Assembly: GCF_964194155.1 (NCBI RefSeq)
Contig: NC_135890.1
Coordinates: forward strand, 38,688,001 to 38,752,000
DNA: 64,000 nt
Origin: Cetorhinus maximus
Taxonomy: Eukaryota
Reading direction: 5' to 3'
The position numbers and the translations under genes were made by a program. This document shows positions 9,414 through 41,599 of this stretch, piece after piece (the stretch's first letter is position 1; every line of letters starts with the position of its first letter). The notes beneath the pieces are model-generated. The model ran no database searches. It was not told the DNA's origin and saw only the letters and a list, made by a program, of their open reading frames with translations.

Positions 9414-11310
9414 CCATAGATTGCGGCATACAAGTCAACGTTTGAAGCCTCCAAAATCTTTCCAAAAATGGGGATCAACATATACACCAAGTGCACAATG
9501 TGAACCACCAGCATGTGTGGACGCCATGTTAAAATGTGTAAAAAACATAACACTGGTAATTCACATTAATGTAGCATGATTTATTTAATAAATTAATTGT
9601 ACAAAGATATCTTTAACCACAATTAAAGCATTACCAAGCTGTTAAATTTATTGTGCTTTGACATCCAATGCAAAGTGCTCTTCGAATTCATTGAGTCAAC
9701 TTTGGCTATAACATCATCATAAGGATCCCACTCTGGATCAGAATCATCCCTCCAGAACAAATCATTTTCTTCTCCATCCATTGAATTGGATAGTCCATAT
9801 TTTTAGCACGATCTGATGACAGCTTGTGCACTAATAGCATTCCGTGATTTGATAATGAAACCACACAAAACATCAAGTGGGGCAGCATGCATATTTTCAT
9901 TCTTTGAGTTGGCTTTTTCTCCATTAACCATCCACCTATACCATTCGGTACGAACATGTTCCTTGAATGACTTGTTGAGGCATGCATCCGAAGGTTGAAC
10001 TACAGACATTAGACCCCTCTCCCTGGTATAACTGCAATGTGGGTGTTATTGCTTTGCACGCACCTCTTGATTTCATCTGCGTGATCAGCACATGTCCCAC
10101 ATTAATAAGCTGCATTCTTTACTGAGGCCTCCGGGACACCTATTCCACACATTCTCAATCCACAACTTCACACCATCCTCATCCATCCAACCACTGTCAC
10201 AGGCATGTACAGAAACTCTTGCAGGGAACTTGATGTACGGCATGGTTTTACATTTGAAAATTACCACAAGCTTTAATTTCATTCTGTCGGCCATGCAGGC
10301 TAGTACCACCATGAATCTTGTCTTCTCATGTCCTGTTGTTTTCACTAGAACTGTTTTCAAACCTTTCTACCATAGATAGGCATATCAAAATTCATGGCCA
10401 CTTCATCCATATTGCCAATGTGACTGAATGGTTACTCATGTTTTTGCCACTGTCTGAACTGCTGGAAACTGGTAATTTTGGCATTGATGTCTTTTGGTAG
10501 TCTCCGCGTGATCTTGGTCTTCGCGAAGCATTAGGCTGTTTTGTTCCGTAAAGCGGCTGCAACAATCAGCTGTTGGTCATCCGCAGTCTTTGCTGGGCTC
10601 ATGGTTTGATTTGGTGCGCTCAAGTGCATATATATGTATTGCATTTCTGGCGAACTGAAGTTCCGCCGAAGGGCCATGAAGGCTCGAAACGTTAACTGAT
10701 TTCTTCTCCGCCGATGCTGCCAGACCTGCTGAGTTTTTCCAGGTAATTCTGTTTTTGTTTTGGATTTCCAGCATCCGCAGTAGCTTTTAGCTTTTTGTTT
10801 TTATCTTCTCAAGATTAAGCCAGTGGCTGATCCCTGTTCTCACAGTGCATTTGGTCTTGGGATCTTCTTCAGGGCAGATTCCTTCATCCATTCTTGCACC
10901 AGTTTTTCACTAACACCAAACTCCCTCGCTGCAGCACTATCATTTGACTCGTTTGCAAATGTTACGACTTTGAGCTTGAAAATTGCTTCGTACTTTGTTC
11001 CTTTTGCTGGAGGACTCATTGCTACTTCAGAACTCGCCATGCCATGTACAGTCTGCTCTGTGCAGGCATGTCTTAAAATCTCATGCATCCTCTTTGTAAC
11101 ACTTGCTTGATCGCAAGTGCCAAATCACAGTATAAGTAAAACATGCATTTCTGGGGGGTATAGCATTTCGCAGCTGAAAATTGGGGGGGCAGTTGTGTGG
11201 GGGGTGGGGGGGGGGGGGGGTGGTCTGGTGGCATTTATATGCTGAATATATTCAAAAGCATGATTTTGGTGCCCATTAAAAGAGGTTGTCTTATAAGCCG
11301 TGATCTATGG
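9414..11310 (-). mobile_element. pogo-superfamily DNA transposon (POGK/Passer-like), transposase pseudogenised
   Basis: Brinker-type HTH KYEAIFKLKVVTFANESNDSAAAREFGVSEKLVQEW (10840-11040) and DDE_1 motifs KTTGHEKTRF.VVLACMAD, GWMDEDGVKLW, SLLMWD, QP.DACLNKSFKEH. Imperfect TIRs CCATAGATTGCGGCATACAAGTCAAC vs rc CCATAGATCACGGCTTATAAGACAAC. Confidence 0.85.
10655..10795 (+). mobile_element. Short Penelope pLTR-derived repeat nested in the pogo transposase
   Basis: Matches the 3' terminus of the Penelope copy at 18500-18604 (GAAACGTTAACTG...GATGCTGCCAGACCTGCTGAGTTTTTCCAGG). Confidence 0.85.
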
Positions 11311-11399
11311 CACTTTTGAAATGCACTCAAATGGAGCAACCAAGTTACACATGTCCAGTTAATCTGCTTTAGGTGATGCTGTTTAAAAAGACAGACTTG

Positions 11400-11850
11400 A
11401 AAAAACTTGCCTTTATATAACACTTTTCACAGCCACCAGATATCTCAAAGTGCTTTACAGCTAATTAAGTACTTTTTGAAGCGTAACTAGCCACCATTGT
11501 AATGTAGGAGGCTCAGCAGCTAATTTGCACAACCAGCTCCCGCAAACAGCACTGTGACAACGATCAGATAATCTGCTTTTGAGAGTTGATTAAGAGATAA
11601 ACCTTGGCCAGGTCAGTGGGAATTCAATTCCCCTGCTGGTCTTCAAAATAGAGTTGTGGGTTCTTGACATTTATCTGAGGGGGCAAACGGGGCCTCAGTT
11701 TAACGTAGCATGGGAACAGAGTACCTCTGACTGTGCAGCACTGCACTGGAAGATCAGCCTTGATGTTTGTGCTCAAGTCCTAGAGTGGGACTTGAACCCA
11801 GAATGTGTGACTCAAGAGTTGAGTGCGCTACCAAGTGAGCCATGGCTGAC
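11400..11850 (-). mobile_element. tRNA-derived DeuSINE-like (SacSINE1-type) element
   Basis: The minus strand starts with a tRNA-like head (TGGCTCACTTGGTAG...GGGTTCAAGTCCCACT), has a central domain, and ends ...TATATAAAGGCAAG. A partial second copy follows at 11860-11990. Confidence 0.75.
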
Positions 11851-12626
11851 ATGGCTTAAGGGATAAATGTTGACCAGTCTACCAAGAGAATTCCCCTAAC
11901 TCAATTTCAGATAGCTCCATGGAATCTTTTACATCCACCTTAGACGCACAGAGCCTTGGTTTAATGTCTCATCCAAAACAAGCATCTCACCAAGGCCATT
12001 TGCTCCGTGCTACACAAGACATAGAACAGGAGGCAAGTTCCTAAGATAGGCTGGAACGTGACTAGATCAGACAGCAAACATGGTTGGGAATGACAAACAT
12101 GGTGCTAAAGAGTTGAATTTTGTGCCCAATTACTCTGCAGAAAAACAAGCCACACTTGTTCATAATTCCAAACTTTAGAAGTCAGGTAACCCAGTAACAG
12201 AACCATTTGTCCTAGTGAATAATTTGCTTGAGAATTCTTAATGAAACCCCTTAAGAGCTTTGAAAACTTATTTGCTAAAGAACACAAGTGTAATCTCCTT
12301 AACCGTATCTCATCACTTAGATTCTTGATACTTAGAATCTTCATTTCTCAGTCCGTACCAACTCAGGGCAACATGATGATTAAACAACCAGGGCTGCAAA
12401 AATTACTTCAGATGGAGTCTAACAATTTTTTTTCAGTAACAATACAACGTCCTCTGGATTGTACTCCGTCTTACTTTAATAACATAACTTAGTATCCCGA
12501 GTGATGGAAAAATGGACTATAAGGACCCTGCATTGTATTAGGAGTACCAATGCCTTAACTGTATACCAATAACTCTTAACTGGGGAAAACAGTAGTCACT
12601 TACTCATTTTTAAAATGTATACTTAC

Positions 12627-12788
12627 AGGGTCCTTTAGCTCTTCGGAATCTCTTATCGAGCATCGAGCAGATTTTCCTGGAATTTCATCACCACATTCAT
12701 TGTCTGATGCGTTGGGAGATTCTACCAGATCAAGTATTTCATCCCGTTTCTGTCCTCTAAATCTTATTTTGTCCAATCGTTTTAGCAT
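12627..12788 (-). CDS. GRAMD4: GRAM domain-containing protein 4, first canonical coding exon (exon spans 12627-12837)
   Basis: Translates MLKRLDKIRFRGQKRDEILDLVESPNASDNECGDEIPGKSARCSIRDSEELKDP, matching from memory the human GRAMD4 N-terminus MLRRLDKIRFRGHKRDDFLDLAESPNASDTECSDEIP...RDSEELRDP (54 aa in both). Acceptor ttctttttatCAG at 12838-12850; phase-0 donor GTAAGT at 12621-12626. The next exon was not found in 1-12600, so it is probably outside the window. Confidence 0.93.
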
Positions 12789-14128
12789 GTTCAACACGGA
12801 GCTCTTTTCCTTCACTTTAACATGATGAATGTTGTTCCTGATAAAAAGAAAGCATAACACCTTTACAAAAAAATATTTTGCTCAGAATCTGAGAATCTTT
12901 AAGCCATCAGCACATGCTATTTAATCATACTTTATGAACAGGTAGCCAACTCCCACAGAAATTAATAAAAGTATAGATGAACCTGAAAGGATTGAAGATT
13001 CCAAGCCAATTCTGCGTCTTAAGACAAAGAGAAAATTATAATTTATCTTCTATTATAGGACATGACACCCACTATACCCATACCTTCACCAATGTACAAT
13101 TATATAATGTCAACTCCAAAGCAAACCATAAAGTTAGTTATTTTGCTATCACTGCACCACATTCTTATTACAAAGAAATTCTGAGAGCTAACAAACTCAA
13201 AAGTCACCCAACTGCTCTCACCGGGACCCAAATGAAAATTGTCATCCTTTTGCAAATAAAATAAAGGTCACAAGTATCACTATAATACCTATATATTTTC
13301 AGTTTCAAAGACAAATAATTAATTATTCAGTTATGTAAAGTACATTTGCTCAGGGCGAGATCAATAGCAGGCCATGTTACAAAACCACAAGTACATTCAA
13401 TAAAAAAACATTATGTGGCCTCCACCCTGAAATAGTAGCTACAGCTAACAAATTATTTTAGGTTTCAAAATAGTTTCATTATGTTCTGCACTGCAAGGTC
13501 CTAAAATAATTAACATAGCAAAACCTGGAACAAACACAAGTTTTCATTCAAATAATCCAACAATATACTGCTAGTCACTGCTAAAAGGGCTTTAATTTTG
13601 ATCTAAATTAGCAACTAAGTAATTAGCTATAATCTACAAAGGACCATAAGCATCTCTTTCCATTAGAGATAATTGGTTAAATAGCTTGAGGGGCATCACT
13701 CCACAAGCATGGGGTAAGGTGAGGAAACAGGCCTCCATGATCTACCACAACAGTGCATTCCTTTCAGTGGCTTTACAAATGATAAACAAAGTGCTGCATG
13801 TCTCACCACCCATTGTCCATTCCCGATGCATCACCACCACCTCACCCTGCTTTTCATCACTTCCATTTAAAATCCATTAATGCACTGATTATTTCAGGTA
13901 ATGTCAATCATCAGTTTGAACCTCATAGTGCCATTACCTCAGTGACATGTCCATTGGCAATTCTATCATGATTTATCTAGTTTAGATTAGGCAGCACCAC
14001 CACCCTCCCCTTCAGTGGCATCTGAAATTCCTGCAGTGGCCTAAACACTTATGCATGGCTTTACCTTTAGAAGTCCTTTGCACTACAGCAAAAGATGGGT
14101 ATCCATCCATGTGCATATATATCAAGTC

Positions 14129-15215
14129 AAGAACATAAGAAATAGGAACAGGAGTATACCATTCGGCCCTTCGAGCCTGCTCCACTATTCAATAAGATCA
14201 TGGCTGATCTTCTCGTGTTTTGATTTCCACATTCCCATCTAACCCCGATATCCTTTGATTCCCTTGCCTAACAAGAATCTATGTACATCTGCCTTAAAAA
14301 TATTCAATGATCCCGCCTCCACCACCTTCTGAGGCAGAGAATTCCAAAGTCACAACTTTCAGAGAAAAAGTTTCCCCTCATCTCTGTCCTAAAAGGGCGA
14401 CCCCTAATTTTAAATCAGTGCCCCCTAGTTCTGGGCTCACCCACAAGAGGAAACATCCCTTTGACGTCCGCCTTGTTAAGGCCATTCAGGATCTTGTATA
14501 CTTCAATCAAATCACCCCTCACTCTTCTAAACTCCAGTGAAAACAAGCCCATTTTGTTCAACCTTCCCTCATCAGACAACCCACTCATTCCAGGTATCAA
14601 TCAAATAAACCTCCTTTGAACCGCCTTCATTGCATTTACATCCTTCCTTAAATAGGGAGACCAAAACTGTATTCGAGGTACGGTCTCACCAATGACCTGT
14701 ATAACTGAAGCATAACATCCTTACTTTTATGTTCAATCCCTCTCGTAATAAAGGACAGCATTCCATTAGCCTTCTTAATTACTTGCTGTACCTGCATACT
14801 AACTTCTTGTGACTCATGTACTGGAACACCTAGATCTCTCTGCACCTCTGAATTATGCAGCCTTTCTCCATTCAAGTAATAATCTGCTTTTTTGTTCTTC
14901 CTTCCAAAGAAAAGGACTTCGCATTTTCCCACATTATACACCATTTGCCAGATCTTTGCCCATCACTCAACCTATCGACATCCATCTGCAACGTCATGTC
15001 CTCTTCACAACATACTTTCCTACCTATCTTTGTGTCATCTGCAAATTTAGCTACCATGTCTTCACTCTCCTCAGCCAAATCATTGATGTAAATCGTAAAA
15101 AGTTGAGGCCCCAATACAGTTGAGGCCCCTGCAAGACTCCACTCGTCACAGCCTGCCAATCAGAAAAAGACCCATTTATGCATACTCTGTTTTCTGCCAG
15201 CCATCCAATCCGCCA
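14129..15215 (-). mobile_element. CR1-clade LINE, 5'-truncated
   Basis: RT motifs LGPQLFTIYINDL, KFADDTKIG, NVGKCEV, VQRDLGV, LYRSLVRPYLEY; 3' tail TTCTTATGTTCTT. Confidence 0.92.
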
Positions 15216-15934
15216 GCAAGGGACTAAGACAAAACCAGCTATTCCGACGATCAATGCTTTTTTTAAAAAAAGTACCTTTTTAAAAAAGTTCTTAGTAACA
15301 CAAATCACATTGACATCAATTTGTCTGCTATAAGCGGTAGGACCGTGCCTACACATGTTGATATTTCACATCGTTCCTCCACCCCAGGCTCATAACGAAA
15401 GCAGAATTAATACAATTATGATTCCATTGACCATTCACTGGGTGCTTCATCCAAAAAGCCATTTTGTGCAATGTGTCTAGACTGTGAATGCCTGCAATTT
15501 ATTCAGCAGTGAGGAGCTCTGCAACCAAGTCCAGTGTTGTCTTATGCTTATATTCATTGGGCATGGAAACTCTTGACCAATCCTCCCTTCTTTACATCAA
15601 AGGACCTAGGGCAATTCTAGCACAATTCCCAGATTGCAACTGAAATCAGTTGATGCAGCACAGATCCCAGGAATTAAATGTGGAACCATATTATAATTCA
15701 ATAAGAACAATTTCTATTTATAGAACACTCCTAACATAGCAAAATATCCCAAGGAGCCTTCCAGAAGTATGAGGCAAAAACAGATTCTGAGCCAAAGGAG
15801 GAGCTATTAGAACGGTGACTAAAGTTATGACAAGGAGGTGCATTTTATAGAGAGAGTCTTAAAAGAGGGTCAGTGTGTTTATCAACTGAGGTGAAAGACA
15901 AAGGTAGAGACGCATTTATAGAGTATTGACTAGT

Positions 15935-16310
15935 CCAAGAAACATCTCAAGACGCTTCGCACAATGACTTTTTGAAATGTGCTCACTGATTATGTCAGTA
16001 AATGCAGCAACCAAATTATGCAAAAGATTCCAAAAACAGCAATGAAATGAAGGCCCAGTTATTTTTTTTGATAGTGTGGTGGTTGAGGCAAAGGTGTTGC
16101 TTGGCGCTCTTCTTGTAAAAGTGTCCTGCAATCTGTAATGTTCACCTGAACAGACAAACAGGGTCTTTATTTAGTATCTCATCTGTAGAGGCTGTCTCTG
16201 ACAACACAGAACTGCCCTTAGTACTGCAGTGGAGAATCTACCCAGGTTGTGTGTTCAAGTCTAGAATAAAGCTTAAACAAAGAACTTTGACTCAGTGCAA
16301 CCGACTGCAC
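15935..16310 (-). mobile_element. DeuSINE-like element, degraded
   Basis: Similar to 11400-11850 (CAGCAACCAAATT...AAACAGCAATG...CACCTGAACAGAC). Confidence 0.6.
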
Positions 16311-16825
16311 CAAACTGGAATAGCTTCATTTAACAATTCAAGGCCCAAACTACTTCAGACTTATTAATGATGCAATGCCTTAAAAAAACTACAAAATTAG
16401 AATTTTAAAAGTATTAATGTTTGGATCCAGCTATTAAAAATTGGCTTTTTTCTCCTCTCATGTGTACAATTTATTATTGATCTTCCTTTTTAATCCTTTG
16501 GACCCCATTTATTTTTGGGCAGGAGGAGCAATAAATAATATACAACAATTTATTAAAATATGTTCCTCACTCTGTGGCAAAGGTGACTAAGAATAGGAGG
16601 TTGTGTGTTAACAGAGGGCAGTTATGCAAATATAATTGCTACATATAATTATTGTTGTGAAGGGTATTAAGCTAATTATTCAAAGTATGCCAAGATAGAT
16701 ACAAAATAGCTCAATTGTAAAGTTGGAATTGTTTAAGGACTTTATTTGAACAAAGTCGCTTCTCTTTTGTTGCAAAAGCGACAAAGCAACTTTTAGAAGG
16801 TGCCAAAAAATAGACAATCGTCCCA

Positions 16826-18604
16826 GAGGCCCGAACAATCCCCATCCACCACTACTCTCCTCCGTCTGGCTGAACTTGTTCTCACACTGAACAATTTCTC
16901 CTTAAACTCCTCTCACTTCCTCCAAATAAAAGGTGTGGCTATGGGTACCCGCATGGGCCCCAGCTATGCCTGTCTCTTTATGGGGTATGTGGAACATTCC
17001 TTGTTCCAGCCCTACTCCAGCCCCCTCCCACAACTCGTTCTCCGGTACATCGATGATTACTTCGGTGCTGCTTCATGCTTTCGTCTGGACCTGGAAAATT
17101 TTATTAATTTTACTTCCAATTTCCACCCCTCCATTATTTTCACATGGTCTATCTCTGACATTTCCCTTCCCTTCCTTGACACCTCTGTCTCAATTTCTAG
17201 TGATAGACTGTCCACCAATGTCCGTTACAAGCCTACCGACTCCCACAGCTACCTCAACGACAGCTCCTCACACCCCGCTTCCTGTAAGGATTCCATCCCA
17301 TTCTCTCAGTTCCTTTGCCTCCTTTGCATCTGTTCTGATGATGCCACTTTCAAAAACAGTTCCTCTGACATGTCCTCCTTCTTCCTTAACCGAGGCTTTC
17401 CACCCACGGTGGTTGACAGGGCCCTCAACCGTGTCCGGCCCATCTCCCGCGCATCCGCCCTCACACCTTCATCTCCCTCCCAGAAACATGATAGGATCCC
17501 CTTTGTCCTCACTTATCACCCCACCAGCCTCCGAATTCAAAGGGTCATCCTCCGCCATTTCTGCCAACTCCAGCATGATGACACCACCAAACACATTTTC
17601 CCTTCACCCCCCCCCCGGCGGCATTCCGTAGGAATCGTTCCCTCCATGACACCCTGGTCCACTCCTCCATCACCCCCTACACCTCAACCCCCTCCCACGG
17701 CACTTTCCCATGCAACCACAGAAGATGCAACACCTGCCCCTTTACTTCCCCTCTCCTCACCGTCCAAGGGCCCAAACACTCATTTCAAGTGAAGCAGCAT
17801 TTCACCTGTACTTCCCTCAACTTAGTTTACTGCATTTGTTGCTCCCAATGCGGTTTCCTCTACACTGGATAGAGGCAGACTGGGTGACCGCTTTGCAGAA
17901 CACCTTCGTTCTGTCCGCAAGCATTACCCAGACCTCCCTGTTGCTTGCCATTTCAACACTCCACCCTGCTCTCATGCCCATATGTCCGTCCTTGGCTTGC
18001 TGCATTGTTCCAGTGAAGCTCAACGCAAACTGGAGGAACAGCACCTCATCTTCCGACTCGGCACTTTACAGCCTTCCGGACTGAATATTGAGTTCAACAA
18101 TTTTAGATCATGAACTCGCTCCTCCATCCCCACCCCCTTTCTGATTTTTCCCCCTCCTTTTTGTTTTTTCCAATAATTTATATAGCTTTTTCTTTTCCCA
18201 CCTATTTCCATTATTTTTAAATGTATTTCCATCCATTTTTTATCTCTACCTTTTAGCCTTTTTCGATTCCTTCACCCCACCCCATCCCCACTAGGGCTAT
18301 CTGTACCTTGCTTGTCCTGCTTTCTACCCTTAATTAGCACATTCCTTTAGATAATATCACCACCTTCAACACCTCTTTGTCCTTTTGTCTGTGACATCTT
18401 TTGGCTATCTCCACCTATCACTGGTCCTCTATCCAGCTCTCTTGTCCCAACCCACCCCCCCACTTAAACCAGCTTATATTTCACCCCTTTTCTATTTTTC
18501 CTTAGTTCTGTTGAAGAGTCATGCGGACTCGAAACGTTAACTGTGCTCCCTTCCACAGATGCTGCCAGACCTGCTGAGTTTTTCCAGGTATTTTTGTTTT
18601 TGTT
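16826..18604 (+). mobile_element. Penelope-like retroelement (5'-truncated RT + GIY-YIG endonuclease + pLTR)
   Basis: RT motifs QIKGVAMGTRMGPSYACLFMG and RYIDD; GIY-YIG region LVYCICCSQCG...RFAEHLRSV...KLEEQHLIFRLGTLQPSGLN; perfect 13-bp TSD GACAATCGTCCCA at 16813-16825 and 18605-18617. Confidence 0.93.
18504..18542 (+). ncRNA. Minimal type-I hammerhead ribozyme motif in the Penelope pLTR
   Basis: AGTT-CTGTTGA-A-GAGTC(ATGCG)GACTC-GAAA-CG-TT-AACT: helix I AGUU/AACU, 5-bp helix II, palindromic ACGU helix III; the core has U at position 6. Confidence 0.6.

Positions 18605-21233: not shown

Positions 21234-21236
<3 letters not shown>

Positions 21237-21270
<34 letters not shown>
21237..21270. 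repeat. (GA)n microsatellite
   Basis: Direct read. Confidence 0.95.
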
Positions 21271-21274
<4 letters not shown>

Positions 21275-22219: not shown

Positions 22220-22740
22220 AAAAACCGAAAATGCTGGACATACTCATTTGTGGAAAGAGAAACAGAGTTAATGTTTCAGGATGATGACCTTTCATCAGAA
22301 CTGGGAAAAGTTAATGTATGAGGATTTGAGAAAGGGGTGGGTGGAATAAGGACAGACAGGTCTGTGATAGGGTGGAAGGCAGGGAAGGTTGAATGACAGA
22401 AGAGTTAGTACAAGGCCAAAGCGAGTGGTGATCAGGCAAGAAAAGAAAAAGATTTGCCTAGAGTAGGAGTACTACTGTATGAAAGTGAAAATAAGAGAAA
22501 TACAGAAACATGCAAAGGGAACAAAATGGGGGTTGGGGGGGGGGGGGTGCGGGGGGCAGTCTGGGGAGTGGTGTGGGACAGAGTTTACAGTCTGAAATTG
22601 TTGATATCAACATTGAGTCCAGAAGGTTGTGAAGTGCCTAATCAAAAGATGATTTTGTTTTTGCATTTGTTTTTATTTCAGCATTTTGTTTTTATTTCAG
22701 ATTTCCAGCGCCGCAGTATTCTGCTTTTCATCTCCTGGAT
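22220..22740 (-). mobile_element. Penelope 3'/pLTR fragment with hammerhead motif at 22266-22302
   Basis: The minus strand reads AGTT-CTGATGA-A-AGG..CCT-GAAACATTAACT, with the C-terminal coding relic GTSQPSGLNVDINNFRL upstream on the same strand. Confidence 0.75.
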
Positions 22741-24476: not shown

Positions 24477-26044
24477 TTTTTTTATTTTTTTTTTGTAAAA
24501 ATATACTTTATTCATAAAATATCTTCAATCACATTCCAAACCATTTCAATAACAACATTACAAGGGTACAATCCAGGTTAAACTTTTACAAAATGTATCA
24601 CCAGGTGCATCAGTACAAACAATATTACAATCATTTACAGCCTTTCATTTTGATCTGTACAGCCCGAGGGGCTCTAAACAGTTCCCAGTCTCTCGGTGCG
24701 CTGTGGTAGAAAGGTCTTAGACAGCGACCCTTCCCCATTGCGCCTTTGCGGCAGCTGCCCCAAGCTTTAGTGCGTCCCTCAGCACGTAGTCCTGGACTTT
24801 GGATTGTGCCAGTCCGCAACAATCGGTCGGGGACAACTCTTTGTGCTGGAAGACCAACAAGTTTCGGGCAGACCAAAGCGCCTCTTTCACCGAGTTGATG
24901 ATCCTCCAGCTGCAGTTGATGTTTGTCTCGGTGTGTGTCCCTGGGAACAGCCCGTAGAGCACAGAGTCCTGTGTCACAGAACTGCTCGGGATGAACCTCG
25001 ACAGCAACCACTGCATCTCTCTCCAGACTTTCTTTGCAAAGGCACAATCCACAAGGAGGTGAACAACGGTCTCTTCCCCACCACAGCCACCTCGAGGGCA
25101 ACGTGCAGAGGGGGTGAGCCTCCTGGCGTGTAGGAAGGATCTGACGGGGAGGGCCTTTCTCACCACCAGCCAAGCTACGTCTTGGTGCTTGTTGGAAAGT
25201 TCTGGCGATGAGGCATTCTGCCAAATGACTTTGACAGTCTGCTCGGGGAACCATCCCACACGGTCCACCCTCTCCTTATCCCTCAGGGCCTCTAGGACGT
25301 TACGTGCTGACCACTGCCTGATGGACTTGTGGTCAAAGGTGTTTTTCTGCATAAATTTTTCCACCAGGGACAGGTGGTACGGCACGGTCCAACTACTTGG
25401 AGCGTTCCGCGGCAGCGTGGCCAGACCCATCCTTCGCAACACCGGGGACAGGTAGAACCTCAGCACGTAGTGACACTTGGTGTTTGCGTACTGAGGGTCT
25501 ACGCACCGCTTGATGCAGCCACACACAAAGGTGGCCATCAGTATGAGGGCGATGTTGGGCACGTTTTTTCCCCCTTTATCTAGAGGCTTGTACATCGCGT
25601 CCCTGCGGACACGATCCATTTTCGACCTCCAGATAAAGCGGAAGATGGCTCGAGTGATCGCCATCGCGCAGGAGTCTGGAATGGGCCAGACCTGCGCCAC
25701 GTACAGCAACAGCGAGAGTACCTCACACCTGATGACCAGGTTCTTACCCGCAATGGAGAGGGAGCATCGCTCCCACATGCCCAGTTTCCTTTTCACCATA
25801 GCCACTCGCTCCTTCCAGTTTCTAACGCATGCCCCGGTCCCTCCGAACCATATCCCCAGCACCTTCAGGCCGTCAGCCCTGACAGTGAAGGGGACAAAGG
25901 ATCGGTCAGCCCAGTTCCCAAAGAACATGGCCTCGCTCTTCCCACGATTTACCTTGGCTCCCGAGGCCAGTTCGAACTGGTCGCAGATGTGCATCAGTCT
26001 GCGCACCGACAGCGGATCCGAGCAGAAGACGGCGACGTCGTCCC
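24477..26044 (-). mobile_element. L1/Tx1-clade LINE, 5'-truncated, young
   Basis: Uninterrupted ~440-codon ORF2 C-terminus (DDVAVF...ASGAKVNRGKSEAM; zf-RVT CPRGGCGGEETVVHLLVDC), 3'UTR with AATAAA and poly(A), and a 13-bp TSD TGTATTCCATTAT at 24464-24476 and 26045-26057. Confidence 0.93.
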
Positions 26045-26150
26045 TGTATTCCATTATACTCCTGATTTGTGCTTTGTGGAAAGGCTTTGGGGGTCAGGAG
26101 CTGAGTCACTTGTTGGAGAATGCCCAGCCTGCTCTTATAAATATTTATGT

Positions 26151-30284: not shown

Positions 30285-32420
30285 CAACAACAACCTGCAT
30301 AGGCACCTTTAAGTTAATAAAACATCCCAAGACATTCACAAGAGGATTACAAAAGGAAAATAAACTGACATCGACATGAAGCCACATAGAGATATTATAG
30401 CAGATGACCAAAAACTTGGGCAAAGAGGTAGATGTTAAGGAGCAATTTAAGGGGAAAGAAGAGCAAAAGTTTAGGGAGGGAACACCAGAGATTAAGGCCT
30501 TGGCAGCTGAAGACATGGCTATCAATGGTGGAGCAATTAAAATCGCGGATCTGTCAGAATTAGAGGACTGCAACTACCTTGGAGTGTTGTGAAGCTGAGA
30601 TTAGAAAGAGGGAGGGACAAGGCCATGGAGGAATTTGATAAATTTTAAAATCAAGATGTTGCTTAATCAGGAGCCAAAATCAGTGAGCACAGGGGGATTA
30701 CAAATGAATGGGATATGGTGCATGATCAGATACAGGCAATGGAGTTTTGGAAGACATCAGTTTACTGAGGGTAGAGTATGGGAGGCAAATAAAGGGTCAC
30801 ATCTAGAAGTATTAGACATGGATGAGGATTCAGCAGCAGAGAAGCTGAGGCAGAGGCAGGGTTGAGAACTATGAGAACTTATAAAGGTGAAAATACGTGG
30901 TTTTAATGATGGCGTGGACACGTGGTCAGAAGCTCACCACAGAGTCAAAGATGATACCAAGATTGTGAACAGTCTGGTTCAGCCTCACACAGTTTCAAGG
31001 GAGAGGGATGGAGCCAGTAGCTATGCAATGGAGTATGTGGTAAGGACCAAAGACAATGACTTCGACCTTCCCAATATCCAATTGGAGGAAAGTTCTGTTC
31101 ATCCAGTATTGAATGTCAGACAAGCAGCTTGACAACGCAAAGACAGTGGAGAGGTCACGAGGGATGGCAGTGAGGTAGAGCTGGCTGTCATCAATGTACA
31201 TGTGGAAACTGACACGGTTTTTGGATGATGTTGCCAAGGGGCAGTATGTGGATGAGAAATAGGAGGATGCCAGGGATAGACCCGTGGTGTGGGAGTGGGA
31301 AGAGAAACCATTGCAGTCGATTCGCTGACAATGAGTCAACACATAAGAATGGAACCAGACGAGTGCTGTCCCACCAAGCTGAAGGAGATGAATTTCATGA
31401 ACAAGATGAGCTCAGAAAGCACATACAGGGAGGTAGAAGAGAAACCAGAGAAAGATGCAAGTTCAGAGCTAGGGCAGGGGATAGACTTAGAGAAGTTTGG
31501 GCCAGCAGACGAGAGGAAGGGAGAGGCGTAGCAGATGGAGTTGATCAAATGGTCTCAATCTTAGTGACAAAGTAGTCCATGATCATTGAGCACATGTTGT
31601 AGGAGGTGGAAGAGACATGGGACAGGGGTTTAAGACAACAATTTGCAGTAGAGAAATGATGCTGCGAGTCATCTTTGCATTCCAGGATCATCCTGGAATA
31701 GAGCAGTTTTAGCAGACAAGAACAGGATCGAACAGTGTTTTATTTGATCCAATCAGCTCTGCCAGCGAATGGCTAAATCAGTTATCCACCACATTCGCTC
31801 AAGACTGCACCCCTTGGACTTAAGGGAGCAGAGGTGAGGGCCGTGCCAGTGAGAACAGCAAGGGTGAAAGAGAGTAACTGTCTTAATATGGACTAAAGCA
31901 CTGAAGGTGGAAGTGAAGATATGGTTGAGTAGATTGGTAGCTGCAGAAATGTGGTGAATGGAGGGCCAAAGGATAGAGAATTGGGATTTTGAAAGTGCAG
32001 TTGTAAGTGAATTCAGAGAGAGCATTTTCCAGGAACTGATAAATAAGGAAGTAGGGTTGTGAGTGAAAGGGGAATGTGGGTGGTGAGCAATACAAGAGCA
32101 AATAATCAGGGCTGGCCTTATCTGTGATCGATACAATGAGTGTGGAAAAGCCATGTGAGATGGCAAAGTCAAGGGTGTAGCTGTGAATGTGTGTTGGGGA
32201 GTTTAGATAGAGGAAGGTTAAGGAAGGATAGGAGGGCAGTGAACTCAGATGAGAATATGATTTAAGACAGTGGTTGAAATCACCAAGGATGAGAAGTCAC
32301 TTGGTGCAAAGACTGAGGGAGGAAAGTACTAAAGATATCTCAGTGAGAAACTTGGTGTGGTACTTGAGTGTGGGTGTAGGGATTTTAAACGGGCGATGTG
32401 ATAGGTAGAACAAAGTGAGG
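30285..32420 (-). mobile_element. L2-clade LINE, degraded, apparently splitting a DeuSINE-like element (30185-30280 / 32430-32710)
   Basis: SFHMYIDDSQLYL...CLSDIQYWMNRTFLQLDIGKVEVIVFG and APE motif LILGDFNH near 32270-32300; the flanks join into a plus-strand SINE ending GGCACTATATAAATGCAAGTC. Confidence 0.75.
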
Positions 32421-32989
32421 TATTTAAAGATAAAAGATACCATGGCACTATTCAAAAGAAGAGCATGGGAGTTCTCCTGGTATCCTGACCAAAAATTATC
32501 CCTCGAACAACATTAATAGAACAGATGATCTGCTCATTTATTTCATTGGCGTTTGAGAAGCTTGTTGCAGCAGATTGGCATTTCCTACATTACAACAATA
32601 ACTGCACTTCAAAGTACTTCATTGGCTGCAAACCCTACTTCCTTATTTATCTGCACGTTGGGATGAGCTGTCACTATAAGGCACTATATAAATGCAAGTC
32701 TTTCTATTTTCATAAGCTTGATTAAACATTTTACACAAGCTGCTGAATTTTTAAAACCTCATTCTCAACTGCTTAGTAGTATTGCTGCTGAGAAATGATA
32801 ACTCCCTCATCAATGTTGAAAAGTTATACCAGGTTAACAAGAGTAAAGGATACATAACTTAGAGTTGTAGAAGTAAGCAAATTATGAAGATGCTCTTTCA
32901 TAAATGTCACTCTTAATACACAGATTTTTTTCCCCAAATAAGACTCAGGTTTTCACAGTACATTCCAAGGCCTTAACTTCTACCACCGA

Positions 32990-33270
32990 AAATAACAAGG
33001 GCAACTGACAAATGGGAACACCATCACCCACAAATTCCCCTCCAAGTCGCATCCTGAATTGGAATTATAATTGCTGTTCCTTCACTGTCGCTGGGTCAAA
33101 ATCCAGGAACTCCCTCCCAAACAGCATTGTAGGTGTTCCTACATCATATGAAATGCAGCAGTTCAAAAAGGCAGCTCACCACCACCTTCTTAAGGGAAAC
33201 CAGATTTGGGTAATAAATGCTGATCTTGCCAGTGATGACCAAATCCCATGAACTAACTTTAAAAAAAAAT
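32990..33270 (+). mobile_element. Family-B LINE 3' end
   Basis: SFTVAGSKSRNSLPNSIVGVPT...FKKAAHHHLLKGN followed by an A-rich tail. Confidence 0.85.
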
Positions 33271-34329
33271 TACTGAAGATAAATATAAATGTTATTTTTT
33301 CTGTATTCATATATATACAAATTCAATTCAGTAATTTATTGAATAGGGAGGGGTAGACAGTAATGATTAACCAGGGTTACTAAGAATCGTCAAAATTGCA
33401 GCACAGTGGGCCATTTCCCTGTCTTAGCCCATCAACTGGAGCTATCTACTTTTACCCCATTTTCCCAATCTTTCCTTTGCTGACCTTCTATTCAAAACAT
33501 ATTTGCAATTATTTTTTATGTTCTGCCTCAACAGCCACGTGTGGCAACACTCAAATAGGCCTCAGCATGAAAAAAAACATCTTCCTTCTTCCAGTGACAA
33601 CCTTGAGGCTCCGCTTCCTGGTTACTGATTTGCTAACCAGTGAAACAATATTCCACTAAATATCCTCTCAACCCTTTCACTAATCTTAAAAACCTCGAAT
33701 GGATTTCCTCCCCTTTTAAGTTGTTCTAATAAATTTTCACTGCACCCTTTCCTTGGCTTTGCCTATGTCTTATGGGTTGTTCAGAACTATACAACGTTAC
33801 AAGCGTGGCCTCAACTCCTGCACAAATTCGTAAATTGCTGCCTTCTTTTTGGATTACCCTTCAGCTTCAAATGCCGCTGCTTTAACCACAATAAATCTGA
33901 AGGCACAGGTTGCACGAACAAAAAAATTAAAGCAAAAACAAAAATACCTGGGAAAACTCAGCAGGATGCTGTCAGACCTGCTGAGTTTTTCCAGGTATTT
34001 TTGGATTTCCAGCATCCGCAGTTTTTTTGCTTTTTATAAAAAAAAAATTAAAGCAACCATCATTTCATTCATTCACTCGGAAAATAGTCAGTTCAATCCC
34101 CAACAATTCCAATGCATCTTTTATAAGAAACATTGTTCCTCGAAAATTACTTTGGGAGCGCCTTTCAAAGGCACAAACATTCCTTAAACCGTTTGGATCA
34201 TATCAGGGGAGGTGAGGAGAAAGGACCAGGTTAATAATACCCAGCACAGCAAGAGCAGCTTCCGGTTGTCAAGGGGGTTGCATTGGGCCTTGAGGACAAG
34301 GCCAGTCACATCGAGGGATTTCTCATTCA

Positions 34330-35020
34330 CACACACACACACACATAAATAAATAAGCAAAAAGCGAAAGGCTGCCTCCCGGAGCAGCGGGAAACAAAGA
34401 TTTCACCATCACTGACATCCAGCTCAGGCCCGAGCCCCGAGGGTGGAGCAGGGGAGTGGCGCTGCAAGGGAGCCGGAACCCTGGGCCCCGGCACCGACCA
34501 TCCCACCGCCGCCCCGAGTGTGAGAAAGGCCCGATCCGAGAATGACAAAAATCCCTCTCACCCGTAACATAATGAACAAAGAATGGAAGGCACGGCACTC
34601 ACCCGGCTCTGACACGCAAATCACAGCTAACTTTCATTAACACCTGCCGAGCTCCAGCCCGACCCCGCCGCCGCTTCAGCCAATAATGACATGAAACCTT
34701 GAAACCTTCTGCTTGTCCCCGCCGCCCACCTCCCTCCCTTCCTTCCCAGCGTGTGTTTATCCACAACAATAAACAGCCCGACCGCTGCAGGTAAAACAGC
34801 AGCGCCGCCGGCCGCCTACCGACCACAAAACCCGGAGCTGGAATCACAACCGCAGCTGGAGCAACAACCGCAGCTGGAGCCTCCCGTCCAGATTCCCCAC
34901 TTCTCCCCGCCCCTTCCCCGCTCGGGAACCGCTCGCTCCGCCAATCCGTGTTTTCCAACTCACACGCACTTAAAGGGTGAACGGATCTGACAAACTCCCA
35001 GCAGCACGTTCCTATTTAAG
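34330..35020 (-). promoter_or_regulatory. CpG island: probable GRAMD4 promoter and first exon
   Basis: The only clearly non-TE CpG-dense, GC-rich segment in the window. Contains GC-box-like CCCCGCCC (~34905), CCAAT (34941, + strand), an ~18-bp tandem CAACCGCAGCTGGA (~34835-34880) and the splice donor at 34603. Confidence 0.75.
34603..34637 (-). CDS. GRAMD4: Putative coding part of GRAMD4 first exon (MKVSCDLRVRA-G)
   Basis: Strong donor CGG|GTGAGT at 34603/34602 inside the CpG island. The ATG at 34637 gives 35 nt (phase 2), which splices in frame to the 49 stop-free nt preceding the exon-2 ATG. Confidence 0.5.
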
Positions 35021-38000
35021 CAACCCACCAAGATTGAATGGGGGCTAGATATTCGACTGACGTTTTGCTTGGTTTCCTTTCAGGATAAGGAAGTTTGGGA
35101 ACAGATGATACAAAACTAATGGAGGTGGTAGACTGCAAAGCTAAATAGGATCAAGCTACATGAGGATTTGTACTTGTGACTTGTAGATGGGGAGTCAGGA
35201 GGTGACTTCCTTGCCGCAGAACTCCCAGCCTCTGACCTGCTCTTGTAGCCATAACATTGTCACTTGGGTGGCAACTCCACACAAGTGCCAGACAATGACC
35301 ACCTCCAACAAAAAAGACTATCTCCCTTTGACATTCAATGGCGTTACCATTGCTGAATCCCCCACTATCAACATCCTGAAGGTTGCCATTGACCAGAATT
35401 GGACCAGCCATATAAATACTGTGGAGAGCACACCACAAACTGCACATTAAGTGGTAGACACAGTCAAGATAGATCCCATGAATTTTCTCAGCGACCCATT
35501 CAGATATCAGTGATCACTGTAAATCACAAAAATCCTTTAAGCTCTCATCTTTCTCATGAAGAACTTCAGCTCCTCTCCTTCAAGAATATCACCTCTGATT
35601 TCCCTCAAGCCCAACTCAGGCTGGAAGCCCTCTTGATTCTTCTGCCTGCAATGAGTTGTCAGGCAACAGTACTCCAGCTTAAATTGCCCTAATGGCTGTT
35701 CACCAGCCAGTTGCTCAATCTCTTCCCCCAAGACTGCATCTCCTGGTGCTGTCAGGCTGCATTCCATAGTCAGATACTGCACCAGTTCTCCCTCTATCTG
35801 CTCTGAGATGAGCACCACTGTTCCTGGACTTTTCTTTGCCCCAACTACCAGCTTCACTGAACAGACAGCCACATTTCAGCTTCCTTGAGCTGACAACTGC
35901 TCCTCATGGGCATCTCTGAGACCCAACTCCCAGCTGCACTGAGCAATCACTGCTCCAGGGCTTTTCAAGACCAAACTATTCAACAGCACAGAGCTATCAG
36001 TTGCCCCCAAGCTCTTCCTATGCCCCAGCAGAACGGAACTAATGACAGCCCTTCAGCTGCATGGGGCCGACCGTCGTCTTCATCTGCTCCTGACTCCATC
36101 ATGTGGGCTTTCTTTTTGTGCAATATAGACATGCTGCCCGATCCCTGCAGCTCAGGAACCCTGGACCCACTCCTTCAATGCACGACCGCCTCTCTGGAGT
36201 GGATAGTTACCTATTCAACCAATCAGTGGATGCAACTGTGTGTGGAAACCCAGAAAGCAAGCACAGCACACATGTTAGTGATTTTCCCAGCCCAGCCAGC
36301 TCATTATCATTTCCCCACAGGCTGTAAAGTGCCTTGAGATGTTCAAAGGTCATGAAATTCAAGTCTTTCTTTTCAGCGATAGAACAGGGAAATGGGACTG
36401 ATTGGATTGCTCTACAGAGAACTGGCATGGACTTGATGCACTGTGATCCTTCTGTGCTGGAATGACTCAATGATTGCTCTTTTTGTCTTGGAAGTATTTG
36501 TATGTTTGTTAGTTACGTGTAGTTAGTTACAATAGCTGAACGTAAAATGGAGACTTAGTATTCTTTTCGATCATGTTATAAATAAATCACGTCTTTCCAA
36601 ATCAAGACATTCTGGAATGAGCAAAAAGCTTTTAAAATGAAATACAGAAGGGGAAGTCATCTTCCAACAACTCCATGTGCTTTTCAGTCAAGTGCATCAA
36701 ATGTAAATCTATTCACTTAATTGGTCAAATATCAATTTATTTTGCTTTTATCCCACTTCGTATGACTATATCAGCTAAAAAGTAATTCTAAATGGAAATT
36801 TAAATGTTAAGCAGAGTATATCCCCACTGTCGCAGTTTTAATGTGGAACTGTGTGATCTAAGCAATAAATAGAGCTTGTGTAACTTTGGCAAATGAAGGA
36901 AGCGTGACAAAAATTTCTCAAGATGCTTTAGAAAGATAAATTCACAATGATGCTTGTAGGAAATAATACTTCTCAATATTTCCTGAACGTTTATGAAGTA
37001 CACCATTATTATAGTGTATAATTTCCAGGGAATTCTGACTAGAGTGATATATGCCATTACTAGCATCATATCATAATTTTGTATTCTTGCTAAATTAGTT
37101 GAAAATTACTTATAATAGCCCAGCCCGCATCAAAATCAATGGTGATCACAAGATTGCTGAATTAATGCTCCTTTGATTGTCGCTGCTACTTAGACTGTTA
37201 AAGAATGGTGTCAGTGGTTTTGGAACTGTCAAGTGATATTCAAATACTCATTTAGAAATAAACATTAAAAATTGTTCTTTCATCAGCAATCAGATAATTA
37301 AAGAAATTAATACATATGAATGAAGATATCTAAATTGCAAGAAATCTAGCAGTGAGGAAGCTGACAACTCTTCAGTGTCCTTCCTTTACCCAAGTGCTTC
37401 CTCAGAGTTTGTGTCACCATATCCTCAGCTTATGTGCTGGCTGATGCTGACTCTTAACTTAAAATTGGCACTAAGAGAGTGAGCTGAGGAAAACTTTCTT
37501 TGCACAGAGTTCCGAGAACAGAGAACATTTTGCCAAAGGTAATAATTTACATAACTTTTTAAAGGAAGAGTGTGTGACATTTGAAGCAAAGGAACTTACA
37601 GAGCTGTGGAAAGAAAGCAAGGAGTGGAATTAGATTTGATTGCTTCAGTGAAGAATCAGCACTTCTGTGCTGTAAAATTTTAAACCCATTATTTTTTGAA
37701 CTGCAATTAAATATAATAGAATATTAATACAAAATCTAAAATTTGGCAACCATAATTTTCCTGAATTTTTATTGTATATTAGACTGGATACTTGTCTTAA
37801 AAGGGAAAGAAGGTCTCGGGAAGTAAACATACACATTGTTACAAAGGAAAAAATACCAGACATTTTTTTAATGTGGATTTCCCAGCCAGTAATGTGATTT
37901 TCTGGAATCAGGTGGCTCTGTATTGTCCGCAGGCTCGTTTGCAGATGTGACCTCCAATGTTTGCATTGGAATTGTTTAAAGATGTAAGGAAATAGTCTCT

Positions 38001-38604
38001 GGAATTCCATGCCAGCAATAAAATTCAAGCTGAACTCTGTGCCAAAGAATCAAATGGGACTCAAAACATTAACTCTGTTTCTCTCTCCACAGATGCTGCC
38101 AGACCTGCTGAGTTTTCCCAGCACTTTCAGTTTTTACTATATAAAATTCAAGCCATTTGTTTAATCTCAAAGAAATTCCTGATAATTGTTTTTATATTTT
38201 CCATAAAACAGGGAAAAATACTATACTTTTTACTAAAAGTAATTCCAATAAATTACTTACTTCCCTTCAATGGACGTCATTAATAAAAAATATTGTTAAA
38301 GCGAAAGGGAAAGAATACCTTTAAAATAGTCACATAACATTAAATGATTAAAAGAGGGAACGAGCACATGCTAATATTTCTCGATCAGTGTTTTTATCAT
38401 TTCTATTTCCTGTACAAGTCTTTCCATGCATTTCCTAAAGGTAAGAAATAGACTGCTAGTCTGTTGTTAGTCAAGTTGGATGAGTTGGCTGTTGGAATAC
38501 AGGCAGCAACAGCCCATCATTCTCATTCTGAAAGCCACAACCTTCTGAATTGAATGTAATAGTTCTGTCATTGCACCAAGTTAGCAGAAGAAATAACAAA
38601 AAGA

Positions 38605-39190
38605 ACAAAACAAAAACAGAATTACCTGGAAAAACTCAGCAGGTGTGGCAGCATTGGTGGAGAAGAAAACAGTTGACGTTTCGAGTCCTCATGACCCTTC
38701 GGCAGAACTGAAGTATAGTTAGGAGAGAGGTGAAATATAAGCTGGTCTAAGGTGGGGGGCGGGGGGAGAGAGAAGTTGAGGGTGGGGTGGTTGTAGGGAT
38801 AAGCAAGCAGTGATAGGAGCAGATAATCAAAAGATGTCACAGACAAAAGGATCAAAGACGTGTTGAAGGTGGTGATATTATCTAAGAAAAGTGCTAATTA
38901 AGAATGGATGGCAGGATACTCAAGGTACAGCTCTAGTGGGGGTGGGGTGGAAAGACTAACAAAGTTTCAGTTTTAGATTTAAAAATAATGGAAATAGGTG
39001 GGAAAAGAAGAATCTATATAAATTACTGAAAAAAAATGGGAGGGGGAAGAAACGGGGTGGGGATGGGGGGAGGGGGAGTTTAAGATCTAAAGTTGTTGAA
39101 TTCAATGTTCAGCCCGGAAGGCTGTAAAGTGCCTAGTCGGAAGATGAGGTGCTGTTCCTCCAGTTTGCGTTGGGCTTCACTGGAACGAAC
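38605..39190 (-). mobile_element. Penelope 3' end/pLTR
   Basis: Reverse complement of 18010-18600 (EAQRKLEEQHLIFRLGTLQPSGLNIEFNNFRS plus pLTR). Confidence 0.9.
38670..38710 (-). ncRNA. Minimal type-I hammerhead ribozyme motif
   Basis: CAGTT-CTGCCGA-A-GGGTC(ATGAG)GACTC-GAAA-CG-TC-AACTG: perfect 5-bp helix I, GUC cleavage triplet, C at core position 6. Confidence 0.62.
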
Positions 39191-39544
39191 AAAAAGAACT
39201 GATTGACGGAGAAAAAAGGGTTGCACTTATGACCTGATATAACAGAAGCTTAACAGAATTCAATGGAATATAATTTTCCTTTAGTCGTGGTGACTCAGTG
39301 TCTCTTTTCACATATGTGATTTATCAATGTTACAGTACACCCTGCTGGCAGATATAGGGGCTGCGTGCCATTGTTAGGATGCTTTTTAGAATCATTGTGT
39401 TATTGTTTCTCCAGATAAGTTCAATTTCCTTTTGAAAGCCATGATTGTTCTGTTCCATGACACTCTCAGGCAATGCGATTCTAACCGCTAACTGCGTAAA
39501 ATTGTTTCCCTCATGTCGCTTTTCTTCTTTTGCCATTCACTTTA

Positions 39545-40375
39545 ATTTTTTTTTGTTCAGTGGATGTGGGCATCATTGGCTGGGCCAGCATTTATTGCCC
39601 ATCATTAATTGCTCTTGAGAAGGTGGTGGTGAGCTGCCTTCATGAACTGCTGCAGTCCCTGTGGTGTAGGTACACCCAGAGTGCTGTGAGGGAGGGAGTT
39701 CAAGGATTTTGACCAAGGGACAGTGAAGGAGATGTGATATATTTCCAAGTCAGGGTGGTGTGTGGCTTGAAGGGGAACTTCCAGGTGATGGTCTTCCCAT
39801 GTATCTGCTGCCCTGGTCCTTCTAGGTGGTAGCAGTTGTGGGTTTGGAAGGTGGTGTCCAAGGAACCTTGGTGAGTTCCTGCAGTGCATCTTGTAGATGG
39901 TACACACTGCTGCCACTGTGTGTTGGTGGTGGAGGGAGTGAATGTTTGTGGAAGGGGTGCCAATCAAGCAAGTTGCTTTGTGCTGGATGGTGTTGGGGCT
40001 GCACTCATCTCATCATGTGGAGAGTATTCCATCATATTCCTGACTTGTGCCTTGTAGATGGTGGACAGGCTTTAGGGAGTCAGGAGGTGAGTTACTTGTC
40101 AAAGGATGCCTAGCCTCTGACCTGCTCTTGTAGGTACAGTATTTATATGGCTAGTCCAGTTCAGTTTCTGGTCAATGGTAACCCCCAGGATGTTGATAAT
40201 GGGAGATTCAGTAATGGTAATGCCATTGAATGTCAAGGGGTGATGGTTAGATTCTCTCTTGTTGGAAATGGTCATTGCCTGGTACTTGTGTGGTGCAAAT
40301 GTTACTTGCCTCTTATCAGCCCAAACCTGGATGTTGTCCAGGTCTTGCTGCATTTGGACAAGGACTGCTTCAAAT
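39545..40375 (-). mobile_element. Family-B LINE 3' half
   Basis: MQQDLDNIQVWADKRQVTFAPHK...ILGVTIDQKLNWTSHIN...KAAHHHLLKSN. Confidence 0.9.
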
Positions 40376-40394
40376 CAGTGTCCTGTGGCTCTCA

Positions 40395-40760
40395 ATTCTT
40401 CCACCAATAGGAATAGTTTCTCCCTATCTACTCTGCCCAGACCCCTCATGGTTTTGAACACCTCTGTCAAATCTCCTCTCAACCTTCCCTAAGGAGAACA
40501 GCCCCAGCTTCTCCCATGTAAATAAATTACTCATCTCTGGGAGCATTCTTGTAAATCTTTTCTGCACCCTCTCCAATGTCTTCACATCCTTCCTAAAGTA
40601 TGGTGCCCAGAATTGGAAACAATACTCGAGTTGAGGTTGAACCAGTGTTTTATAAAGGTTCAATATAACTTTTTTGCTTTTGTACTCATGCCTCTGTTTA
40701 TAAAGCCCAGGATGCAGAGGCCTTATTAACCACATTCTCAACTTGTCCTGCCACCTTCAA
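40395..40760 (-). mobile_element. CR1 LINE fragment
   Basis: LYKTLVQPQLEYCFQFWAPYFRKDVKTLERVQKRFTRM. Confidence 0.88.
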
Positions 40761-41599
40761 CAAATTCTTGATTTACAATTTCAGACTCTGAGAAGTGGCT
40801 ATGAGTGTCTATCTGAAAGCAAAATCTGAATGCCATAATTATTTGCAAGCTACAGAACACTGTCGGGTAGGGAGGACAAGTGCAAGAAGTAGATAAGAAA
40901 AATAAATTAAAATTATCAAAATTGGCATTCTGTACTGCAGTAATATTCTGACTAATTATGGATGTTCCAGTGTAGATGTTCTTTCAATCATATGGGACAA
41001 AGGCCTAACAAAACACTTTATGGAAAAGTACATCGAGTCTGCATAATCAAAACAGATTCATTAATTTTACTCATACAAAAACAAAAAATGCTGGAAAAAC
41101 TCAACAGGTCTGAAAGTATCTGTGGAGAGAAAGACAGAGTTAACGTTTTGAATCTGTATGACACTTCTTCAGAGCTAAAGGGGTTGTTTCAGATTTCCAG
41201 CATCCGCAGTATTTTGCCTTTATCATTAATTTTACTTTTTTCTCATATGCAGAAGGTATAAACCCATGGATGAATTATATGTATAGTTTATACCTTCCAC
41301 ATACAGGGAAGTTATATATATGCTAATATAACGTATTATTGTTTTGCTGGCCATGGAATAAGGGATTGGTGCATGTTCCAAGTGATATTTTAAGTCATCA
41401 ACATAAACCAGCATTTTGAGTGGAGCATATACTACATTTTGTTTTAATCAGAGGCAATTATTTGGATTCTGTAGTTGAAATATAAATGTATACACAAAAC
41501 AAATGTAGGTAAAATGCACAGTTCGCTATACAGTTACAATGTCATCTAGTTACCCAAGTTAACACTTTTTTGAGTGTGCTTGCCTATTTTTATTCCTCT

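Follow-up and report, generated by a model that had tools for sequence, protein, structure and literature searches.

Can a retroelement go on spreading with a hammerhead ribozyme whose core has lost the A at position 6 (A6)? The question is raised by a stretch of 64,000 nucleotides (nt) of Cetorhinus maximus (contig NC_135890.1, positions 38,688,001 to 38,752,000; hereafter the window). A model's reading of its letters alone, the sequence-only reading, described five minimal hammerheads here in the pseudo-long terminal repeats (pLTRs) of a Penelope element. It proposed that a recently active subfamily propagates with a position-6 core variant, either as a tolerated natural variant or after losing its need for cleavage. 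A direct sequence check placed all five motifs at the coordinates collected in Table 1, those at 22266 and 41138 being damaged. A relaxed pattern matches four of the five within the window and matched in 0 of 100 shuffles, and fold prediction yields helices I and II for the motifs at 10659, 18504 and 38670. The described forms of helix II (GAGTC/GACTC, GGGTC/GACTC and GGGCC/GGCTC, the last including a U-A to C-G double change) are all present. An Rfam scan of the window gave no hammerhead family match at E values up to 1; minimal hammerhead forms evidently lie outside Rfam coverage. As to the core variants of the well-preserved copies, those at position 6 proved to be subfamily states. The C4 of CCGCCGA at 10659 did not: its subfamily majority has U4, and the change, at 10664, is private to this copy.

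Position 6 of the hammerhead core across the genome

The window is part of a 3.99-Gb genome, to which the genome-wide counts refer. A single exact pattern in which only position 6 was varied, and which favours young copies, matched 46,247 motifs, 41,159 without A6 against 5,088 with it (89% non-A6). Neither the reversed-pattern controls nor a scan of metagenome contigs with a pattern gave any match. With G5 changed, the same pattern matched 599 motifs (1.3%), and 125 non-A6 matches carry a purine at position 17. In 600 kb of unselected DNA, 51 matches yielded 27 readable cores, 14 with A6 and 13 without. There, the median divergence from the nearest subfamily majority was 11.0% for A6 and 3.1% for non-A6 copies (P 0.018, some of the copies having helped to build the majorities).

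Twelve subfamily majorities were compared with the canonical core, C3 U4 G5 A6 N7 G8 A9 / G12 A13 A14 / U16.1 H17. The outcome that the sequence-only reading had named as fatal to its proposal, A6 in every subfamily consensus, is not what they show: eight of the 12 depart from the canonical core at A6, with U or C. Every other core position is canonical in all 12, and four older subfamilies are canonical throughout. Judged by sequence, these motifs are real minimal type-I hammerheads, and the change at position 6 is not decay.

Subfamily history

Trees were built, with positions 6 and 7 masked, from 122 of 219 distinct copies, those that retain 230 nt or more of the 300 nt of upstream pLTR. 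The resulting tree is a ladder that runs from A6 to U6 and then to C6. One clade of 93 rows (Shimodaira-Hasegawa-like approximate likelihood ratio test [SH-aLRT], 99) holds 91 of the 92 non-A6 rows together with two A6 rows; a clade of 74 rows nested in it (SH-aLRT, 100) is entirely non-A6. The position-6 label changes four times on the tree, compared to 27.2 times for shuffled labels, and G6 occurs in a few copies near the transition. The tree has no outgroup, and its direction is taken from within-subfamily divergence, which falls from 10.4% in the oldest A6A7 subfamily to 3.3% in the first U6U7 and 0.8% in the last C6U7 subfamily. The four copies of the latter, the youngest, are two pairs from two insertions. 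Uninterrupted full open reading frames (ORFs) beside hammerheads were found at three loci, L172, L281 and L291, all with C6; no specific search for full-length A6 copies was made.

The proposal of a recent lineage propagating with a position-6 variant thus holds for the youngest subfamily and the intact-ORF copies, and it extends further. On this tree, the whole recent trunk of the lineage (eight sampled subfamilies), and not one subfamily, is without A6. Copy numbers, as pattern counts, went up after the loss. Post-loss markers of the S4 type dominate the contigs of organisms A, C and D (RNA-labelled assembled contigs, type guessed). Going by these markers, there is a hint that the loss predates the split of these organisms.

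Constraint on the motif after the loss of A6

Summed over the five steps between successive post-loss majorities, 110 changes fell on about 280 flank sites and 15 on motif sites, an equal per-site rate; the flank value corresponds to about 0.4 substitutions per site of trunk evolution. Across the eight post-loss majorities, 27 of 39 motif sites and 177 of 248 flank sites are invariant. Variation is confined to 12 motif sites: positions 6 and 7, four of the five sites in loop II, H17 (restricted to U or C) and five positions in the stems, where pairing is kept. C3, U4, G5, G8, A9, the extra A, G10.1-C11.1, G12, A13, A14 and ACGU are unchanged. The chance that the 11 variable sites other than position 6 would all avoid the 12 core and palindrome sites is about 0.006 (0.018 for the 10 classical sites). 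Both core-region CpGs are kept in all eight post-loss majorities, and the ACGU palindrome (the 15.1-16.1 segment, without loop III) is present in all 12.

Among 48 distinct non-A6 variants, the inner four pairs of helix I are 100% paired and helix II is 99.2% paired, compared to 16 to 46% in slid controls. Helix II includes 11 U-A to C-G rows and three U-G intermediates, and 9,454 genomic motifs combine the compensated helix with a pyrimidine at position 6. Since the variant rows are related, the U-A to C-G change counts as one compensatory event. The helix II covariation that had been proposed is therefore present in these compensated rows, with support from two of five shuffle measures, and the contrary outcome, helices I and II without covariation, was not observed. 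At the level of these majorities and variants, a hammerhead-shaped constraint persisted after A6 was lost. Because all other core positions stayed fixed, a tolerated variant would fit better than a lost need for cleavage.

The host element and its predicted transcript

The identification of a Penelope pLTR was borne out by a full-length relative, L172, to which the window pieces are 85 to 94% identical. Its hammerheads, 3,291 nt apart, flank a 917-amino-acid (aa) ORF. This single ORF joins a reverse transcriptase (RT) to a C-terminal GIY-YIG endonuclease, the hallmark of endonuclease-positive (EN+) Penelope-like elements (RVT_1, E 2e-6; GIY-YIG, E 4.5e-4; both slightly short of the Pfam cut-offs). 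The protein carries DKG, YIDD and YIGET motifs and, at residue 783, a CX4CX2C zinc-finger linker. A CX2-5CxxC linker between RT and endonuclease is described as a mark of Neptune and Nematis elements (PMC8557442). Partial tandem pLTRs, an inverted 5'-truncated partner copy and an optional tail are found in L172, L281 and L291. By its domains and linker, the element is a Neptune-like EN+ Penelope, the Neptune assignment resting on a linker common also to Nematis. Another locus, L051, was rejected as a full-length element, being a local duplication. Summed contig depth on L172:6186-6241, a conserved stretch just after the hammerhead, lies far above that on the ORF in runs X1, X8 and X13 from three other organisms, which suggests that the family is abundant in relatives too.

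In all 12 majorities, a TATA-like box lies at -28 to -31 from the motif, and the ORF ATG follows about 190 nt 3' of the motif's first base. A motif some 30 nt behind a TATA-like box probably forms the first 39 nt of the transcript, and the hammerhead is likely to be the 5' end of the element RNA. In several short copies (window 10654-10659; L259, L274 and L278), the 5' edge of the motif is where the copy starts, in many cases with a fold-back, consistent with a transcription start there.

Insertion ends were mapped on the first 30 tail-anchored copies of contig C1. Most of their 3' ends fall into two clusters, +63 to +81 and +107 to +130 relative to the cut site. All 30 extend back through that site, and four start at the 5' edge of the motif, between -35 and -40.

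At 18543-18560 of the window and in older subfamilies, a branch-like sequence, a pyrimidine tract and CAG, then a conserved ATG, stand 3' of the cut site. From subfamily S4 on, the AG has become CG, and in young subfamilies an upstream ORF of 10 codons starts at the ATG. Because younger subfamilies have lost the AG, an intron with its end immediately 3' of the motif or ahead of the ORF was rejected as a general feature; no splice joints across it were found in the RNA-labelled assembled contigs (contig type guessed).

Cleavage and alternative explanations

The reading towards which we lean, as somewhat probable, is that these sequences encode an attenuated, slow ribozyme without A6 that is likely assisted by protein and still under selection. 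Transcription would start at the first base of the motif, and copying would start some 65 to 130 nt downstream of the cut site and run back through it. Fast cutting would then strip the cap from the ORF message and sever the copying start from the element body. With the motif at the message's 5' end and the copying start just downstream of the cut, fast cleavage would be costly to both cap and template. A weakened core would leave most RNA uncut and could be tolerated or favoured. Occasional cleavage might take place in dimers joined through the ACGU palindrome, with circles perhaps made by ligation afterwards, and residual, probably protein-assisted cleavage would still be required at a frequency that holds the other core bases fixed. 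A bolder version, which we consider less likely than not, is that the element tuned its own ribozyme down from A6 through U to C and now carries a hammerhead that cleaves only with its protein or with Mn2+. If so, the hammerhead family with the most copies in this genome would do without a core rule supposed to be general, and searches based on CUGANGA would miss that family.

Several precedents bear on such a ribozyme. A natural A6C phage hammerhead cleaves slowly, with a kobs below 0.1 per min (PMC3088659), and prefers Mn2+ (PMC7151607). The Penelope hammerhead of the anole is reported to cleave only with the element's protein; uncut RNA is its main template in vitro, where insertion does not require cleavage (PMC11167929). 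RtcB can circularise cleaved retrozyme RNA (PMC7229834).

A number of observations weigh against residual cleavage. No 5' end fell on the cut site in the 30 tail-anchored copies of contig C1. A by-eye tally of 5' ends (100 of 1,529 rows, of which about 21 are small indels; inversions through helix I blur it) showed no clear pile-up, with about 11 of 79 non-indel rows at the cut site compared to 0 to 9 at neighbouring positions. In the monomer fold predicted for U6U7 forms, the core is taken up in pairing with GAAAC. For each of the 14 forms computed, the cofold minimum is more stable than the predicted active dimer junction. In a second ribozyme, A6C lowers the rate to 3.55e-6 per min at 0.3 mM Mg2+ (PMC7151607), a full mutational scan recorded little activity in CUGA-turn mutants (PMC9901934), and minimal hammerheads of Penelope elements are weak even when they have A6 and even as dimers (PMC4209133). 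Together, slow A6C, weak CUGA-turn mutants and weak minimal hammerheads could mean no activity. The core invariance is itself weaker when set against the downstream 60 nt, which are also conserved (P 0.07, 12 sites). Many loci were chosen by motif patterns, which biases single copies toward intact cores. The shuffle controls back covariation on two of five measures only, with a single double change of one evolutionary origin.

G17, a non-cleavable state, also counts against cleavage. It stands in both hammerhead copies of three insertions, one of them full length with an intact ORF, so cleavage is probably not a requirement of every event. In one subfamily, a purine at position 17 occurs in 10 events (duplications merged), four of them common to both copies of the insertion, compared to 0 of 15 at two control positions (Fisher P 0.017; too few events for an interpretation). 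With only those events that have a visible partner, the comparison is four of six against none of four (P 0.08, again too few).

Some further observations concern the cut region. In each of five insertions, L281 (G000:C27:34460001-34468000), L282, L283, L288 and L291, one rare core change stands in both hammerhead copies: G17 in three of the insertions, A17 in another and A5 in the fifth. L281 and L291 have uninterrupted ORFs. A rare change present in both copies either came with the template, appeared at an early point of the event or was spread by conversion. Fewer than 1% of 52,043 tail matches were able to start at the cut site. Positions 17 and 1.1, which flank the predicted cut, switch repeatedly between subfamilies (U/C and A/G, respectively), with nine changes each across 119 copies. 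This does not amount to hypermutation beyond the flank range in the same copies (median, 3; 90th percentile, 9.7). The repeated switching might be a trace left when a junction formed by ligation is copied.

The main rival holds that the ribozyme has been dead since A6 was lost and that the fold persists because it serves the RT-endonuclease protein as a scaffold for binding or dimerisation. We regard it as rather unlikely but as the strongest of the alternatives. It would account for the insertions with G17 in both copies, the lack of a clear cut-site footprint in insertion ends and the rise in copy number after A6 loss, and it agrees with an anole element that inserts without cleavage in vitro (PMC11167929) and with Naiad elements that thrive without canonical hammerheads (PMC8557442). 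A scaffold, however, need not retain G5, G8, G12 and a position 17 limited to U or C through about 0.4 substitutions per site.

It is improbable that the motif is instead conserved at the DNA level as a core promoter, with initiator and downstream elements, and that the hammerhead is a slowly fading relic. The fixed distance of the TATA-like box would be explained, as would the four of 30 copies that begin at -35 to -40 and the conservation of the downstream 60 nt, and the 5' strand of helix I resembles an initiator. A promoter predicts neither the pair-keeping and compensatory changes of helix II nor the wobble with which helix I begins at its base, and +28 to +32 mismatch the downstream promoter element consensus.

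Slightly less credible still is a division of labour in which A6-less copies serve in a dimer as its substrate half only, the cut being made in trans by transcripts of older A6 copies. The ACGU palindrome and the helix I strands are common to all subfamilies from S1 on, and A6 copies are still common (14 of the 27 readable cores in unselected DNA). The enzyme half (C3, U4, G5, G8, A9, helix II and GAAA) would have been free to drift in the A6-less lineages, yet it did not drift. Post-insertion decay as the source of the position-6 variants, in favour of which nothing emerged, is refuted by the 89% of pattern-matching motifs without A6 against 1.3% with G5 changed, by a position-6 state that follows the tree (four changes against 27.2 shuffled) and by the lower divergence of non-A6 copies (median, 3.1% against 11.0%).

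Between a slow ribozyme and a scaffold, the lineage offers a natural series from A6 through U6 to C6 with nearly all else constant, so that why Penelope elements keep hammerheads, whose function in them is described as unclear (PMC8557442), becomes testable with 40-nt RNAs. If the A6-less forms cleave, the textbook consensus understates how flexible the core is, and searches by descriptor yield too low a count, missing 41,159 of 46,247 well-preserved motifs here. If they do not, the ribozyme is kept as a noncatalytic scaffold, which is also informative.

Features of the window

The Penelope features of the window are listed in Table 1.

TABLE 1 Hammerhead motifs and Penelope pieces in the window
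Feature	Coordinates	Strand	Remark
Minimal hammerhead, young C6C7 subfamily, doubly compensated helix II	10659..10697	+	C at core position 6 = 10666
Short Penelope copy, hammerhead 5' edge to tail	10659..10807	+	93.5% over 154 nt to 5' end of full-length L172
Penelope element, 5'-truncated, frameshifted	16824..18604	+	85.7% over 1794 nt to L172
TATA-like box, predicted pLTR promoter	18474..18481	+	~30 nt 5' of 18504 hammerhead
Minimal hammerhead, U6U7 type, stage just after A6 loss	18504..18542	+	U at core position 6 = 18511
Older decayed hammerhead, canonical A6, different short helix II	22266..22302	-	Read from sequence
Tail-only inverted pair without hammerhead	33929..34035	.	Tail only
Extra decayed motif and tail copy, missed by the sequence-only reading	38040..38136	+	78.8% over 80 nt (38057-38136); upstream part read from sequence
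Penelope 3' end: endonuclease end, pLTR, hammerhead, tail	38603..39186	-	85.3% over 593 nt to L172
Minimal hammerhead, young C6C7 subfamily	38670..38710	-	C at core position 6 = 38702
Old decayed A6A7 hammerhead	41138..41176	-	Inside short copy 41077-41180

The predicted cut of the 10659 motif lies between 10693 and 10694, and the 38670 motif has near-identical copies on many contigs. The longest piece contains the C-terminal part of the RT, the zinc-finger linker, GIY-YIG remnants and the 3' pLTR, with ORF pieces at 16797-17792, 17582-17872 and 17826-18113; a Pfam search of the window's own Penelope ORF pieces gave no matches. Both damaged motifs are old. The 22266 copy, which is of an older type, reads ACAU where the palindrome would be ACGU, and its 4-bp helix II is broken. 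In the 41138 copy, A replaces G12, helix I has a mismatch and helix II is broken (predicted helix I/II probability, 0.00); the short copy around it has an inverted tail piece at 41184-41221.

Other elements also occupy the window. A 458-aa open frame at 24717-26093 on the minus strand matches zf-RVT (E 1e-10) and, weakly, RVT_1, and is the C-terminal part of an L1/Tx1-like long interspersed nuclear element. A C-rich minisatellite with 20- and 32-nt units lies at 7232-7897. Open frames at 51289-52196 (-) we take to be pieces of a Harbinger-type DDE transposase, and short open frames at 10085-11124 (-) are presumably pieces of a pogo/Tigger-type transposase.

Comparison with known systems

Short head-to-tail hammerhead arrays, the mark of non-LTR retrozymes, do not occur within the window. 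Literature searches found no position-6 variant in Penelope hammerheads (supplementary alignments, outside the search, could hold some) and, in main texts, no series that runs from A6 through U to C along a whole lineage of an active vertebrate element. Both a natural A6C and the presence of minimal hammerheads in Penelope pLTRs were known before.

The motifs closely resemble the minimal hammerheads described from the pLTRs of metazoan Penelope elements (Cervera and De la Pena 2014, PMC4209133), with their short helix I, an extra unpaired base after A9, G10.1-C11.1 and a palindromic 15.2-16.2 without loop III. As there, they occur in both pLTRs, in tens of thousands of single copies and in covarying families. 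They differ in that the active lineage has U or C instead of A6, whereas the core variant noted in that account is U3-A8 in Schistosoma. The same core position is changed to C in the natural hammerhead of phage Bcep176, for which activity was demonstrated (PMC3088659, PMC7151607). Unlike that single phage ribozyme, the present motif is of the minimal, dimer type, exceeds 41,000 copies and arrived via U6, with C7 or U7 adjacent.

Type-I hammerheads related to Penelope termini are also reported for non-LTR retrozymes (PMC7229834; bioRxiv 10.64898/2026.07.22.740005), the latter source using canonical and minimal hammerhead descriptors. The copies found here, by contrast, derive from an autonomous element, whose ends they represent in truncated or inverted form. 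The Poseidon element PAc of the green anole (PMC11167929) likewise has a pLTR hammerhead, two copying start sites downstream of it and insertions that run through the cut site. The ORF of PAc starts in stem II, whereas that of the present element opens about 190 nt after the motif start and encodes a protein with the CX2-5CxxC linker of Neptune and Nematis.

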